A model generated the notes under the pieces. It saw only the letters and a program-made list of their open reading frames with translations. It was not told the DNA's origin and searched no databases. The translations under genes were made by a program, and so were the position numbers. DNA of 64,000 nt from Candidatus Multivoradales bacterium (GTDB lineage: Bacteria; Acidobacteriota; Thermoanaerobaculia; Multivoradales; J023): positions 800,001-864,000 of the forward strand of contig CBDFLE010000005.1 of the NCBI GenBank assembly GCA_965248925.1, written 5' to 3'. Shown piece after piece: positions 17,418 to 22,294 of this stretch. Position 1 is the first letter of the stretch, and the number at the start of each line of letters is the position of its first letter.

Positions 17418-17924
17418 ATGAGTGAGTCACCAGAGGATCGCGTCCGCGTCGAAGTCAAAGGTTTGATGTTGGATCCAAATTCGAACGTACCGATAGTTAT
17501 TCTGCGGGAGGCTGGCGGTTCAGAGATCCTGCCGATCTGGATCGGCGTCTTTGAGGCCAACGCTATCGCCTTGTCGCTTGAGAAAATCGAGCCTACCAGG
17601 CCGATGACCCATGATCTGATTGCAAACTTGGTCGAGCAGATGGAGATCGACGTCTGTCGGGTGGTGATCTGCGATCTGCAAGAGAGCACCTTCTTCGCTC
17701 GCATCGATCTGCAGAGAGGCAGTCGGCCCGAAGTGTCGATCGATTCACGACCCAGCGATGCGATTGCCTTGGCCCTCCGAGTCGACGCTCTGATCTTTGT
17801 CACCCGAGGGGTCCTCGATCAGGCACGGGACGTTGACCTCAGCGATCAGCTCGGCGAGCGCAATAAGATCCGTAAGTGGCTCGAAGAGGTCGATCCCGAA
17901 GATCTTGGGAAGTACACCATGTAG
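17418..17924 (+). CDS. Bifunctional nuclease family protein (DUF151)
   Basis: LPIWIG..EA.AI, RPMTHDL, DSRPSDAIALA. Confidence 0.93.
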   Translation: MSESPEDRVRVEVKGLMLDPNSNVPIVILREAGGSEILPIWIGVFEANAIALSLEKIEPTRPMTHDLIANLVEQMEIDVCRVVICDLQESTFFARIDLQRGSRPEVSIDSRPSDAIALALRVDALIFVTRGVLDQARDVDLSDQLGERNKIRKWLEEVDPEDLGKYTM

Positions 17925-18017: not shown

Positions 18018-18035
18018 ATGTCGGCGCGCCGACAT
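18018..18035. promoter_or_regulatory. Perfect 18-bp palindrome, candidate non-canonical parS site
   Basis: ATGTCGGCGCGCCGACAT; 16-bp core has the TGT-N10-ACA geometry of parS; 100 bp upstream of parA. Confidence 0.6.
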
Positions 18036-18094
18036 CGGCCAATCCGAGGCGCCGGCCGCGCTTTCTTAGACCATCGTCCCCAGCATCGTCTCCC

Positions 18095-18124
18095 TTGACC
18101 GATGGGTCGCACAGCTCATATGCT
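18095..18124 (+). promoter_or_regulatory. Putative sigma-70 promoter of parAB
   Basis: TTGACC-N18-TATGCT, 10 nt before ATG 18135. Confidence 0.5.
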
Positions 18125-18134
18125 GAGTTCTCCT

Positions 18135-18893
18135 ATGATCATTGCCATCACCAATCAAAAAGGCGGGGTGGGGAAGACCACCACCGCAATCAATCTCTCC
18201 GCCGCATTGGCGACCAAGGGTCTCAAGACTCTGCTGATTGACCTTGATCCCCAGGCCAACAGCTCGATGTCATTCGTCGATGTGCATTCTTTGGAGCGGG
18301 CGATCTACGATGTACTGACCGAGGATGAGGTCCATTTGGAAGATGTCGCGGTCGCAGCGGAGAAAGTTCCCAACCTATTCGTCGCCCCCTCAAGCATCAC
18401 CTTGGCGAAGATAGAGTCGAAGTTGCTCGGCGAACTCGACAGTCACTTTCGCCTCAAGGACGAGGTCGATCGGATCCACGATGACTACGACTTCATCATC
18501 ATTGACACGCCCCCGACCCTCGGCATCATCACCGTCAATGCGCTGGTCGCCTCGACCCATGTGCTGATTCCGATTCAGTCGAGCTATTTCGCCCTCGAGG
18601 GAACCGATGACTTGATCGAGACCATCGACAAGATCAAAGTGCGAGCCAATCCCAATCTGCAGATCCTCGGCGCGGTCATCACCCTCTACGACAAGCGCAC
18701 CATCTTGGCCCGCGATATCCGCCATGAAATCGGCAAAGTGTTCGGCGACAAGCTTTTTGAGACTTCGATCTCGAAGAGTGTTCGCCTTGAGGAAAGCCCT
18801 GCTTATCGTGAGTCGATTTTCACCTTCGCGCCTTCCTCCAGTGGCGCCTATGAATATTACAAGCTCTCTGAAGAGGTGCTGAGCCGTGTCTAA
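18135..18893 (+). CDS. parA: ParA family ATPase
   Basis: Deviant Walker A KGGVGKT, DLDPQAN, IIDTPP.LG. Confidence 0.95.
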   Translation: MIIAITNQKGGVGKTTTAINLSAALATKGLKTLLIDLDPQANSSMSFVDVHSLERAIYDVLTEDEVHLEDVAVAAEKVPNLFVAPSSITLAKIESKLLGELDSHFRLKDEVDRIHDDYDFIIIDTPPTLGIITVNALVASTHVLIPIQSSYFALEGTDDLIETIDKIKVRANPNLQILGAVITLYDKRTILARDIRHEIGKVFGDKLFETSISKSVRLEESPAYRESIFTFAPSSSGAYEYYKLSEEVLSRV

Positions 18894-19776
18894 TTCCAGC
18901 TTGGACGCCAAGAAACGAGGCCTACCAGAACGGGTGCGAATGCGGCATACGCCGCACTTCGTTGAAGAACTGACCACCCGCAGCGAGCAGCCGGTGGGGA
19001 AGATGGTACCTATCGCGCTGGTCGAACCCGACCCCGATCAGCCTCGGTCGACCATGGGAGACCTCAGCGATCTGGTTGGTTCGATCCAAGACAAGGGCAT
19101 TCTCGAACCCATCCTCGTTCGTCCTTTCGGCGACCAGCGGGCTGGCAAGCCGCAGTACCGCATCATTAGCGGCGAGCGGCGTTTCCGCGCCGCGATGGAA
19201 GCCGGTCTGGTTGAAATTCCACTCATTGAGATGGAGGTCAGCGAGCAAGAAGCTCTTGAGATCGCCTTGATCGAGAACCTGCAACGCAAGGATCTAACCC
19301 CCTTTGAGGAAGCCGAAGGGTACTCATTCTTGAGTGGGCGGCATGATTACACCCACGAAGAAATCTCCCAAGCGGTGGGCAAGTCCCGCACCGTAGTGAC
19401 CGAGAGCCTGGCTCTGCTACAGATGCCACGCCGTGCCCGTGAGACCGCCCAGGCGCTGGGTATCCAGACCAAGTCTCTGCTACTCGAAGTTCTCAAGGTT
19501 GAAGACGAGGAGCAAATGATCCAGCTCTTGGAGCAGGTAAGTCAACGAGGTTTGAACCGCGACGACCTGCGCCGCCGGCATCGCGGAGCAGCCAAGCCCG
19601 GCACGCCGAAGCCAAGACGTAAGCCCTATGTCTTCAATTTTCGCGCCCCGGACAAAAGCTTCAGTCTGGCACTGAAATTTCGACAGGTGGACGTCTCGAA
19701 AGAAGATCTGATCTCCACGCTCGAGAACATCCTGACCGATCTGAGAACAACCAAAGAAGGTCCTGAAGGCGCCTGA
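18886..19776 (+). CDS. parB: ParB/Spo0J family CTPase, atypical DNA-binding region
   Basis: QPR, GILEPILVR, ISGERRFRAA, ENLQRKDL, HTH THEEISQAVGKSR. Confidence 0.93.
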   Translation: MSNSSLDAKKRGLPERVRMRHTPHFVEELTTRSEQPVGKMVPIALVEPDPDQPRSTMGDLSDLVGSIQDKGILEPILVRPFGDQRAGKPQYRIISGERRFRAAMEAGLVEIPLIEMEVSEQEALEIALIENLQRKDLTPFEEAEGYSFLSGRHDYTHEEISQAVGKSRTVVTESLALLQMPRRARETAQALGIQTKSLLLEVLKVEDEEQMIQLLEQVSQRGLNRDDLRRRHRGAAKPGTPKPRRKPYVFNFRAPDKSFSLALKFRQVDVSKEDLISTLENILTDLRTTKEGPEGA

Positions 19777-19823
19777 ACTGGCGCCGCCGTGTGCCAAGGA
19801 ACGGAGGGGTTCTCGTTAGTCCT

Positions 19824-19851
19824 AGTTGACATAATGTATCTTATCAGACTC
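19824..19851 (-). other. dif-like XerCD recombination site
   Basis: Minus strand GAGTCTGATAA-GATACA-TTATGTCAACT: 11-6-11 layout with inner ATAA/TTAT; XerD arm resembles E. coli TTATGTTAAAT; AT-rich and intergenic. Confidence 0.85.
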
Positions 19852-19933
19852 TAGAAATTAGCCCCTTGTGACCACCTTGGCGGGTACGAACTGCTCACCA
19901 GGCCGTCGCTGCCCAGCGTATAATCTCGACCGT

Positions 19934-22294
19934 ATGATCAAACGCCTGGACCGCTACATCTTCGCCGAGATCCTTGGGCCGCTGGCTCTCGGCTTCCTGG
20001 TCTGGACTTTCATCCTCGTTCTGCGCTACCTGTTTGAGATCGCCGAAATGGTGATCCGCCGCGGCGTGGGCTGGTCGACCGCTGGCGAACTGCTGTTGCT
20101 CTACCTGCCGAGCATCGTCGTGCTGACCATACCGATGGCTTTGTTATTTGGCATCTTGGTGGCCGTGGGTCGGCTGTCTGCCGAGAGTGAGCTGATCGCC
20201 ATCCGTGCCTCAGGGGTGAGTCTATTCTCCCTCTATCGACCGATCCTGGTGCTGTCGCTGGTGCTGGCGCTGACCAACGGCTACCTGATGCTCGAGGTGC
20301 TGCCGTACCAGAACCACGCTTTCTCGCGCCTGCGCTACGAGATTCTGCAACAGGGCCTGACCCGGCAGATCGAGCCGCGGGTGTTCTACACCGATTGGGG
20401 CAACCAGGCGTTCTACGTCTTTGAGACCCCTGCCGGTGAAGAGCGCTGGAAGAACACTCTGCTGACCAACAAGATCCCAGCTGGCGACCATCGGTTGGTG
20501 GTCGCCGATTGGGGTGCGGCGCAAACCAACGAGGAAAACGGCAAGGTAACCTTGACCTTCTGGAATGCGGTTGAGCACCAGGTTAATCTCACCGACCCCA
20601 CTGACTACCGCTATTCACGCCACGCAAAGCTCGATCTGGTGATCGACACCGGCCAGGATCGGCAGACTCGCAACTCGGTGAGTCGCAGCATGCGGGAGCT
20701 GGACCTCAAGGGGCTACGCCAGCGAGCACGCGACGCGGGGGCTTCTCCACTGGTCCGCAATCTAGCCCGGGTGGAAATGCATAAGCGCTTCGCCCTGCCC
20801 GCCGCCTGCGTGGTGTTTGCCCTACTCGGTCTGCCCTTGGGCTTTACTACCAACAACCGACATGGCGGGCGATCGTCCGGCCTGGTGTTGTCGATGGGCG
20901 TGATCTTGGTCTATTGGGTTCTGCTGACCATGGGCGAAGAGATGGCCGGCAACGGCCACTTACCGGGTTGGCTGGCGGCCTGGTTTCCCAATTTGGGCTT
21001 GTTCGCTGCTGGCTTGTTCATCATGGCCAGGCGCAACCGCGATCGCGGTTTGGCGTTGATCAATTTTTCCTGGATCAGGCGCTGGCTCGATCGCCGCAGT
21101 GAACGAGCCGAGAACCGCAGACGCAGTCGCCGCCAGGCTTTGATCTCGAAGCGCCAGAGTTCGCGCGCCGATTTGGTGTTGCGCCTGCCCAGCTTCCAGC
21201 TGCGTTTTCCCAACTCGATCGACCGCTACATTTTGAGCAGCTTCTTCCGCACCCTGCTTCTGGTCTGCATGGGTTGCTTGACGGTTTATATCGTTGCCGA
21301 CGTCACCGATAAAGTCGATGACATCTTGAAGAACGCCGTGCCCGGCAACGTGTTGCTGTCGTACTACCGATTCAAGATGTTGGCGATCATCTACGAGATT
21401 GCGCCGATCATTTTGCTGGTGACGACTTTGACCACCTTCGCCATGCTCAGCCGAAACAACGAAGTGACCGCCTGCAAGGCAGCCGGAGTCAGCCTCTATC
21501 GCTTGTCCTTGCCGGTGATCCTCGCCGCCGCCGGACTGGCCGGTCTCTTATGGTTGTTAGGCTCGGAGGTCCTGGCTGCTTCCAACGAACGGATGGCGGT
21601 ATTGCAAGCGCAGATCAAGGGTCGTGAGGCGGTGCCGCAGCATCAGCGGGCCGATCAACGTTGGCGTTTCGCTACCGACCAGAGGCTCTACAACTATCGC
21701 CAGTACGATGCCGGCAAGCAGCTGGTCAAGAATCTCCAAGTCCTGGAGCTGGACGATCGGCGTCACCTGGTGCGGCGCCTAGTGGCGGAAAGCGCGGCCT
21801 ACGCCGGCGATGGCTGGTGGGCGTTGAAGAACGGCTGGACGCGAGAATTCGGTGACCATCAGGTCACTAGCTTTGAGCGCTTCGATGACGTCAAGAAGGC
21901 TCGCCTGCCGGTTGAGCCCGAGTTCTTTCTGGGCGAGTTGCGCAGTCCCGACGAAATGAACTTCAGCGAGTTACGTCAGTATCTGACCGAGCTAGAGGCT
22001 ACCGGACAGCAAGAACCGGTCCTCGAAGTGGAACTCTACGACAAGATCGCCTACCCCACGATCTCACTGGTGATGGCGCTGGTTGCCCTACCCTTCTCCT
22101 TCTTGCTCGGCCGCCGCGGTGCACTCTACGGAATTGGCCTGGCAATCGTCCTCGGCATTGTTTTCCTCGCCTTGATGGCCACCTTCAAAGCGCTGGGCCA
22201 GGCGGCGGTCCTGCCACCGCTAATAGCTGTGTGGAGTCCTAGTCTGATCTTCTCGCTGTTGGCGCTCTATCTCTTCCTCGGCATTCGCTCCTGA
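19934..22294 (+). CDS. Fused LptF-LptG LPS export permease
   Basis: Two tandem YjgP/YjgQ-type units (LDRYI...E..A.RASGVS...W.PN; IDRYI...E.TA.KAAGVS...WSP). Confidence 0.9.
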   Translation: MIKRLDRYIFAEILGPLALGFLVWTFILVLRYLFEIAEMVIRRGVGWSTAGELLLLYLPSIVVLTIPMALLFGILVAVGRLSAESELIAIRASGVSLFSLYRPILVLSLVLALTNGYLMLEVLPYQNHAFSRLRYEILQQGLTRQIEPRVFYTDWGNQAFYVFETPAGEERWKNTLLTNKIPAGDHRLVVADWGAAQTNEENGKVTLTFWNAVEHQVNLTDPTDYRYSRHAKLDLVIDTGQDRQTRNSVSRSMRELDLKGLRQRARDAGASPLVRNLARVEMHKRFALPAACVVFALLGLPLGFTTNNRHGGRSSGLVLSMGVILVYWVLLTMGEEMAGNGHLPGWLAAWFPNLGLFAAGLFIMARRNRDRGLALINFSWIRRWLDRRSERAENRRRSRRQALISKRQSSRADLVLRLPSFQLRFPNSIDRYILSSFFRTLLLVCMGCLTVYIVADVTDKVDDILKNAVPGNVLLSYYRFKMLAIIYEIAPIILLVTTLTTFAMLSRNNEVTACKAAGVSLYRLSLPVILAAAGLAGLLWLLGSEVLAASNERMAVLQAQIKGREAVPQHQRADQRWRFATDQRLYNYRQYDAGKQLVKNLQVLELDDRRHLVRRLVAESAAYAGDGWWALKNGWTREFGDHQVTSFERFDDVKKARLPVEPEFFLGELRSPDEMNFSELRQYLTELEATGQQEPVLEVELYDKIAYPTISLVMALVALPFSFLLGRRGALYGIGLAIVLGIVFLALMATFKALGQAAVLPPLIAVWSPSLIFSLLALYLFLGIRS

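Follow-up and report, generated by a model that had tools for sequence, protein, structure and literature searches.

A second ParA/ParB pair with a conserved palindrome lies beside dif in Acidobacteriota and probably marks the replication terminus

A stretch of 64 kb (hereafter the window: positions 800001-864000 of contig C5) from a six-contig, Thermoanaerobaculia-type Acidobacteriota genome of 7.98 Mb and 96.9% completeness (G000) was found to carry a perfect palindrome (parS2), a ParA gene (parA2), a ParB gene (parB2) and a dif-like site in succession. On the evidence given below, it is probable that parS2-parA2-parB2 constitutes a second chromosomal ParABS system which marks the replication terminus and not the origin. 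By sequence, two predicted ParA/ParB pairs are present on one chromosome, the canonical pair with canonical parS by dnaA and the other, with a different 16-bp palindrome, by a unique dif at the terminus as defined by skew. A large part of Acidobacteriota has conserved such a layout. ParABS is the textbook machine for segregation of origins and plasmids, and handling of the terminus has been described for unrelated proteins restricted to certain lineages, MatP and ZapT among them, and also for FtsK/XerCD. A ParABS placed at the terminus would most likely position or segregate the ter/dif region. The coordinates of the features in the window are as in Table 1.

Table 1. Features of the terminus-side partition locus and its conserved neighbours (positions in the window; ORF, open reading frame; CTPase, cytidine triphosphatase)
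Feature	Position	Strand	Description
parS2	18018..18035		Perfect 9+9 palindrome ATGTCGGCGCGCCGACAT; 16-bp core at 18019-18034; proposed centromere-like ParB2 site
Predicted promoter	18095..18124	+	TTGACC-18 nt-TATGCT by consensus scan; 10 nt before the parA2 ATG
parA2	18135..18893	+	ParA ATPase of Soj type; 252 aa if counted from the 18135 ATG; longest ORF begins at 18102
parB2	18886..19776	+	ParB-family protein, 296 aa; CTPase motifs kept, DNA-recognition residues and N-terminal peptide altered
dif-like XerCD site	19824..19851		11-6-11 arrangement: AGTTGACATAA TGTATC TTATCAGACTC
BFN-domain gene (PF02577)	17418..17924	+	Pfam BFN_dom 1e-39; conserved upstream neighbour
lptFG	19935..22294		LptF and LptG apparently in a single ORF of ~790 aa with two LptF_LptG domain stretches

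Results

Position of the locus on the replication map

The cumulative guanine-cytosine (GC) skew on C5 climbed to a maximum at ~808 kb and the skew stayed negative from 810 kb on, with dif at 819,829. On contig C6 the cumulative skew dropped to a minimum at 2,702,000, and dnaA (231 bits) was found at C6:2,699,640. The parA2-parB2-dif locus therefore sits at the C5 skew maximum, which is the leading-strand skew switch opposite dnaA. A canonical pair, parA1-parB1, and the single exact canonical parS of the genome (C6:2,687,780) were located 12-14 kb from dnaA, in line with the initial annotation, which had taken parA2-parB2 for a second partition system and not the sole parAB. The parA2-parB2 locus itself had neither of the two marks of a canonical chromosomal ParABS, a position near oriC and a TGTTTCACGTGAAACA site. 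Since the skew slopes of C5 and C6 were alike, C5 was regarded as the terminus-bearing part of the same chromosome as C6. The possibility that C5 is a replicon of its own whose origin carries parAB2 was rejected because the skew polarity was terminus-like; it was also countered by the matching slopes of C6 and by single-contig relatives that hold both systems. ParB2 shared a contig with dnaA in 7/7 single-contig ParB2 carriers (G030, G040, G109, G128, G145, G274 and G330), and the shorter arc between the two was 42-50% of the genome in all seven (genome sizes rounded). Overall, these positions placed the locus away from oriC and on the chromosome, not on a plasmid, as had been supposed at the outset.

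Distribution in Acidobacteriota

A phylum sample of 301 Acidobacteriota genomes with completeness ≥90% was searched for ParB2 with an E-value of at most 1e-40. An orthologue was present in 174/301 genomes and 134/192 genera, and in 37/40 close relatives. Identity across the phylum was 41-74% with invariant catalytic and DNA-contact residues. Three sets of orthologous loci, which may share genomes, were compared: 30 order-level loci, the best 80 public loci and 26 loci of a phylum sample. Some of the 80 public loci carry titles such as Heliomicrobium, Bifidobacterium, Polyangiaceae and Acidithiobacillales; these names are uncertain, and the oddly titled loci retain the order miaB-like gene, BFN-domain gene, parA2, parB2.

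ParA2 and ParB2

ParA2 matched the Pfam families AAA_31 (3.8e-60) and CbiA (2.7e-25), and its best solved relatives were Soj of T. thermophilus (1wcv, 1.5e-51) followed by 8ray and 6iub. It was 40% identical to the origin-side ParA1. The deviant Walker A motif NQKGGVGKTT was invariant in 27 sequences, and identity across the order was 73-83% with every ATPase motif invariant. parA2 adjoined parB2 in 30/30 order-level loci and also elsewhere, except in g17-type (see below) and truncated loci. The GTG start of parB2 (18886) overlaps the parA2 stop (18893), which suggests coupled expression. The promoter-like element before parA2 was accompanied by TTGACC...TACACT/TAGACT at the same position in most orthologous loci (inspected by eye). 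For both parA2 (18095-18137) and lptFG (19915-19937), a -10-like box lies ~10 nt before the ATG, also in relatives, and leaderless or near-leaderless mRNAs are therefore suggested.

ParB2 matched ParB_N (PF02195, 5.7e-25) and the helix-turn-helix (HTH) family HTH_ParB (PF17762, 3.6e-15), had 1vz0 (5e-36) and 6t1f (9e-33) as solved relatives, and was 36% identical to ParB1. Its AlphaFold2 model (predicted local distance difference test, pLDDT, 77) showed disorder in the N-terminal residues 1-22, followed by a short helix (25-31), a CTPase domain, an HTH domain and, as a candidate dimerisation domain, a beta-beta-alpha C-terminal unit at 248-290; the pLDDT of this last unit was ~80, and the solved matches are C-terminally truncated. 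The top Foldseek matches of the model were chromosomal ParB and Noc (6t1f, template modelling score 0.83), and the fold was also like 7nfu. The GERRxRA and ENLQR boxes of the CTPase domain were invariant in 30 ParB2 sequences and across the phylum sample.

The residues of Caulobacter ParB that contact parS, as listed in PMC7383237, include Q162, N178, G201, R204, G170, K171, S172 and R173. In an alignment with this protein, G170, K171, S172 and R173 were kept in ParB2, Q162 was changed to H, N178 to an invariant E and R204 to L; G201 was changed to K or S, with two alignments one register apart at this residue. These substitutions held phylum-wide, within the elements TESL and [KR]SxLL. The N-terminal peptide of the ParB2 family reads RGLPxxxxMRHxxH[FY]V[ED]xL, and ParB1 has RRGLGRGLDALL. 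All protein motifs quoted in the initial annotation were recovered, namely KGGVGKT in the parA2 product and GERRFRAA, ENLQR, SRTVVTESLALL, TKSLLLEV and RGLPERVRMRHTPHFVEEL. With a predicted Walker ATPase, a predicted CTPase/HTH ParB and a conserved palindrome, the module is a member of the ParABS family at the level of sequence.

The parS2 palindrome

The palindrome was found where it had first been noted, with 100 bp between its end and the parA2 ATG (18135, MIIAITNQKGGVGKT). The 18-mer was single in the 7.98-Mb genome with up to 2 mismatches allowed. The 14-mer core had 3 copies in G000, all on C5, and control words had 2-16 copies, so this count was not meaningful. Sites of the TGTCGGCGCGCCGACA type were present 5' of parA2 in 28/30 order-level loci with 1-6 copies; the other two were loci cut inside parA2, and the core was invariant in the 28/28 loci spanning the region. 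With ≤1 mismatch, parS2 was present in 28/30, 67/80 and 22/26 loci of the three sets, and the reversed-pattern control in 0/30, 1/80 and 0/26. The consensus was TGTCGGC-NN-GCCGACA, with the half-site TGTCGGC fixed and the central two bases variable. Placement varied from 5' of parA2 to 3' of the parB2 stop or within parB2, where the site encodes C-R-L-A-D. The form within parB2 was seen in Vicinamibacteria- and Blastocatellia-type relatives (L132, L137, L139, L145, L146, L151, L152 and many of L064-L120). The spo0J gene of Bacillus subtilis contains canonical parS.

At the genome level, the exact 16-mer occurred once, at the locus, in each of G031, G033 and G039, and most genomes held 1-3 parS2 sites. 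Exact TGTCGGCNNGCCGACA was found in 131/301 sampled genomes and its reversed control in 8/301. It was present in 129/174 ParB2-positive versus 2/127 ParB2-negative genomes, counts in which relatives are not independent, so that a Fisher test overstates the association. With the unpublished genomes G062 and G182 left out, the numbers were 172/299 for ParB2 and 127/172 for exact parS2. One-mismatch forms occurred in G030, G304, G109 and G320, all of which have no exact site. The palindrome is thus a conserved, putatively cis-acting site tied to ParB2. A role of the palindrome as intrinsic terminator of the BFN-domain gene was ruled out, as no T-run follows it.

The dif site and Xer recombination

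The 11-6-11 dif-like site lies 48 bp after the parB2 stop, as originally described, and 1.8 kb from parS2. A search with the core pattern ACATAA-N6-TTAYC gave two matches in G000, one at the locus and one on contig C2 (C2:11347), so that the core was unique on the chromosome contigs; the reversed control gave 0. The core occurred once each in 8/10 near-complete genomes, G030, G031, G033, G039 and G040 (control 0) and G128, G145 and G330, and the pattern had no match in G109 and G274. The distance from dif to the parB2 stop was 0.1-0.8 kb in 6/8 genomes and larger in G033 (2.5 kb) and G040 (24 kb). In the three locus sets, the core was near the locus in 26/30, 45/80 and 20/26 cases, with control counts of 0 in all sets. 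Among 86 distinct dif sites, the flank GTT preceded the left arm in 70-86/86 and GAC followed the right arm in 75-86/86, and the six central bases varied. Conserved arms with a variable centre are the layout of Xer sites. The genome encodes XerD (TIGR02225, 351.7 bits, cut-off 329.6), an XerC-like protein (333.9 bits, just below the cut-off of 335.15) and FtsK with a gamma domain (FtsK_gamma, 96.1 bits). Both the palindrome and the linkage of parAB to dif, which the initial annotation had described at this one locus, were conserved in orthologous loci across the phylum, with controls near 0.

No second dif-like site was found in the 64-kb window with up to 4 mismatches allowed in 19 positions. 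With one dif-like site only and housekeeping flanks, the locus did not resemble integrative mobile elements exploiting Xer (IMEX). A different situation was observed in G040 (G040:C1:3640940-3665099; L153, L154), where 24 kb with genes for TrbI, a TraG/TraD-like coupling protein and a VirB11-like ATPase separate dif from a degenerate second copy of it, which shares the central hexamer and lies 118 bp past the parB2 stop. This segment resembles a conjugative element that was inserted through Xer recombination, and such a signature gives indirect support for the dif site being active. In G000, the contig with the other dif-core match, C2 (41,481 bp; L155, L156), has genes for an AAA_24 protein, for a helicase like RecD2 and for a primase of archaeo-eukaryotic type, and C2 may be a plasmid, a phage or an Xer-exploiting element.

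Genus g17 and sites confined to the terminus region

parA2 was not found in five genomes of genus g17 (G030, G040, G227, G254 and G304), as the only ParA match (36-38% identity) adjoins ParB1. In these genomes parB2 directly follows the BFN-domain gene. The g17 ParB2 has no RGLP...MRH...HFVEEL motif and retains the CTPase boxes, TESL and TKSxLLE. Since the N-terminal motif and parA2 were lost together, the motif is a candidate ParA2 contact, which this co-loss supports.

Sites with the core GTCGGC-NN-GCCGAC were searched in four g17 genomes (G227 excluded), with 1-4 matches per genome for the reversed controls. In the replication terminus (Ter) region lay 14/14 sites of G304 (-396 to +565 kb of ParB2), 13/13 of G040 (-728 to +563 kb of dif), 8/8 of G254 (-351 to +410 kb) and 7/10 of G030 (-324 to +809 kb), the last two ranges being relative to ParB2 or dif. 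In G145, which belongs to another class, 8/13 sites were within 100 kb of dif. The clustering of sites around dif that the initial annotation had suggested looking for was thus observed in the g17 genomes and G145, but not in G000 with its single site. From the g17 genomes we infer that ParB2/parS2 probably has a Ter-tied function able to outlive ParA2. On one side of dif in G040 (G040:C1:3.17-3.72 Mb), successive parS2-like sites, with up to one mismatch, were 82-104 kb apart; this regularity was less clear with the exact 14-mer core.

Neighbouring genes

Upstream of the locus were genes for a phosphoenolpyruvate-utilising enzyme, a MiaB-like radical S-adenosylmethionine enzyme and the BFN-domain protein, and downstream of dif the fused LptF/LptG permease. 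The gene order miaB-like, BFN, parA2, parB2, dif, lptFG was conserved across the phylum. The BFN-domain gene was 5' of parA2/parB2 in 23/30, 73/80 and 26/26 loci and remained directly 5' of parB2 where parA2 is gone; it may be a further component of the system or merely frozen synteny. Its product carries a conserved acidic tail (...KKWLEEVDPEDLGKYTM). The LptF-LptG fusion was kept 3' of dif in many relatives. GC content at the locus was 0.567 versus 0.60-0.63.

No replication initiator was seen near the locus, and the weak DnaA-family matches on C5 were repeated 342-aa ORFs. These ORFs, which match the DnaA ATPase model weakly, occur among seven near-identical 372-aa tyrosine-recombinase ORFs on the minus strand (G000:C5:923200-976003), spaced 7.5-12 kb and situated 100-160 kb to the right of dif, outside the window. 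The series is a mobile-element array near the terminus.

Discussion

The terminus-side module shares with the canonical Soj/Spo0J-parS system at oriC a Soj-type ATPase, a ParB in which the CTPase domain is N-terminal and is followed by an HTH and a predicted C-terminal unit, a parA-parB operon with stop/start overlap, a 16-bp palindrome by or inside parB, and the outer TGT...ACA of parS. It differs from this system in its place at the terminus by dif, in the inner 10 bp of parS2, in the replacement of N178, G201 and R204 among the contact residues of Caulobacter ParB, and in having RGLPxxxxMRHxxHFVEEL where canonical ParB has the LGRGL peptide. The canonical ParABS coexists with parA2-parB2 on the same chromosome.

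MatP/matS is the Ter macrodomain organiser of enterobacteria and vibrios. The analogy with it that was drawn initially fits the site arrays confined to the dif region in some lineages, as g17 and G145 hold 8-14 sites over 0.15-1.3 Mb centred on dif. In contrast, the fold of MatP is unrelated, ParB2 being of the ParB family by Pfam, sequence and fold, and most ParB2 lineages have 1-3 sites (one in G000) and a dedicated ParA. The ParB2 system is also not known to be connected with the divisome. Noc sites avoid the terminus, whereas ParB2 sites concentrate there, and a cognate ParA is present in most ParB2 lineages. ParB2 reached 139.2 bits against the Noc model TIGR04285, whose cut-off is 315, and the canonical ParB1 scored higher (214.1). 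The g17 form of ParB2 does resemble Noc in having many sites and no ParA partner. Noc/NBS is also a likeness in that, according to PMC7383237, a ParB paralogue kept its CTPase and switched specificity by changes in its recognition helix and GHAR region. R173, a Q in Noc, is kept in ParB2. The ParB2 system is therefore not Noc, given the score below the cut-off and the opposite distribution of sites, and not MatP, given the different fold.

Two ParABS systems with different parS in one cell are also found where a secondary replicon is present, as with ParAB2-parS2 of Vibrio cholerae chromosome 2, which is orthogonal to the system of the main chromosome. Such systems lie near the origins of separate replicons, whereas in G000 both are on one chromosome at opposite replication poles. 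Mobile elements of the gonococcal genetic island type are integrated at dif and have parA/parB genes, so that parA and parB adjoin dif as they do here; unlike these, the G000 locus has no second flanking dif, transfer genes or integrase, and its core synteny is phylum-wide. By analogy, the main form of the system probably works most like a plasmid-type equipositioning ParABS set at the terminus, and the g17 form most like matS/MatP. No description of a terminus-linked ParABS, of Acidobacteria ParAB or of the parS2 sequence was found in the full-text literature, with subscription journals and supplements outside the scope of this search. The terminus ParABS is a real and conserved ParABS variant, and it is apparently undescribed so far.

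A mechanism can be proposed in which binding to the palindrome, spreading, orthogonality and positioning are all predicted properties. As the GERRxRA and ENLQR boxes are intact, ParB2 dimers are proposed to load at parS2 as CTP-dependent clamps, which would spread over the neighbouring few kb including dif. Nucleoid-bound, Soj-type ParA2 would be stimulated solely by the N-terminal peptide of ParB2 itself and would equiposition the ParB2-parS2 complex in the manner of plasmid ParABS systems. In this way, one unreplicated terminus would be kept at mid-nucleoid, the place of action of the divisome and FtsK/XerCD, and sister termini would be pushed apart following replication and dimer resolution. 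Orthogonal parS sites together with orthogonal ParA-stimulating peptides would allow the origin and terminus systems to act on one nucleoid without cross-talk. In a wider form of this proposal, which we put forward tentatively and hold to be somewhat short of probable, the chromosomes of many Acidobacteriota are in effect dicentric: ParABS-1 would serve the origin, the orthogonal ParABS-2 would equiposition dif at mid-nucleoid and so couple termination, dimer resolution and division, and at least one genus would have shed the ATPase and multiplied the sites to give a MatP-like organiser.

Several observations weigh against a centromere-like module acting at the terminus. ParB2 was not found in 127/301 sampled Acidobacteriota and is therefore dispensable in parts of the phylum. 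Exact parS2 was missing from 45/174 ParB2-positive genomes, the site being different or elsewhere in some lineages, and 13/80 public loci had no parS2 within 3 kb. An octamer-skew curve, drawn on C5 with the six most strand-skewed octamers of C6 (generic G-rich words and not proven FtsK-orienting sequences), peaked at 562,752 but formed a plateau over 550-850 kb; such a curve is compatible with a switch in this interval and does not pin it to dif, and from the plateau it follows that skew alone locates the terminus to tens of kilobases and no finer. In G000 the only parS2 lies 59 bp upstream of the parA2 promoter-like element, and an operator role is therefore possible there. Finally, ParB2 and the sites persist in g17 although ParA2 is gone, so that the conserved core function may be independent of ParA.

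This last point leads to the main alternative, in which ParB2/parS2 would chiefly organise or signal the Ter region independently of ParA, with ParA2 as an accessory dropped by some lineages. ParB2/parS2 might then act like MatP/matS, as a point for loading or blocking of SMC (structural maintenance of chromosomes) complexes, or by linking terminus and divisome in the manner of Noc or MipZ. Such an organiser is favoured by g17, in which ParB2 with its CTPase boxes, dif and 8-14 sites confined to Ter are retained although parA2 and the N-terminal motif are lost, by the 8 sites of G145 at ≤100 kb from dif and by the score of ParB2 on the Noc model, although under the cut-off. We nevertheless consider it unlikely: parA2 adjoins parB2 in all order-level loci and nearly all others, ParA2 is strongly conserved across the order with invariant ATPase motifs, the start-stop overlap suggests coupled expression of the pair, and the 1-3 sites of most genomes are centromere-like.

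A considerably less likely reading takes the module for a partition cassette left by a plasmid, chromid or Xer-exploiting element of ancient date, which integrated at dif, and gives it no terminus-specific function. Integration at dif is illustrated by the conjugative segment of G040 and by the dif-like site on the 41-kb contig of G000, and the slightly low GC content of the locus would agree with this reading. Against these stand the lack of a second dif-like site in the window and of a visible replication initiator nearby, the housekeeping flanks in phylum-conserved order, the phylum-wide identity with invariant catalytic and DNA-contact residues, and the site arrays grown around dif in some lineages. 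Very improbable is a palindrome that serves merely as operator for parA2B2, through ParB2 or another regulator, with nearness to dif an inherited gene order without function: the lone G000 site is near the promoter-like element and a site copy abuts the -35 box in several relatives, but in other classes the site lies within parB2 or past its stop, away from the promoter, the sites of G145 and g17 are tens to hundreds of kb from the operon yet only around dif, and adjacency to dif is kept in the locus sets despite the usual plasticity of termini. Neither of these two explanations accounts well for the synteny that is conserved or for the site arrays far from the operon.

A second chromosomal ParABS at the terminus, if true, would mean that a phylum-wide system at dif provides a new way to position the last-replicated DNA and to clear it from the septum. 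It would also be a natural case in which one replicon carries two mutually orthogonal ParABS systems, would provide a new ParB-parS pair for use in locus labelling, and would be a second natural example after Noc of the rewiring of ParB specificity. ParABS-2 is testable in any cultivable member of the phylum that carries the system. The ParA-less g17 form with its site arrays would stand halfway from centromere to macrodomain organiser, and if the chromosomes are indeed dicentric, Acidobacteriota would make visible how a centromere can evolve into a macrodomain system.

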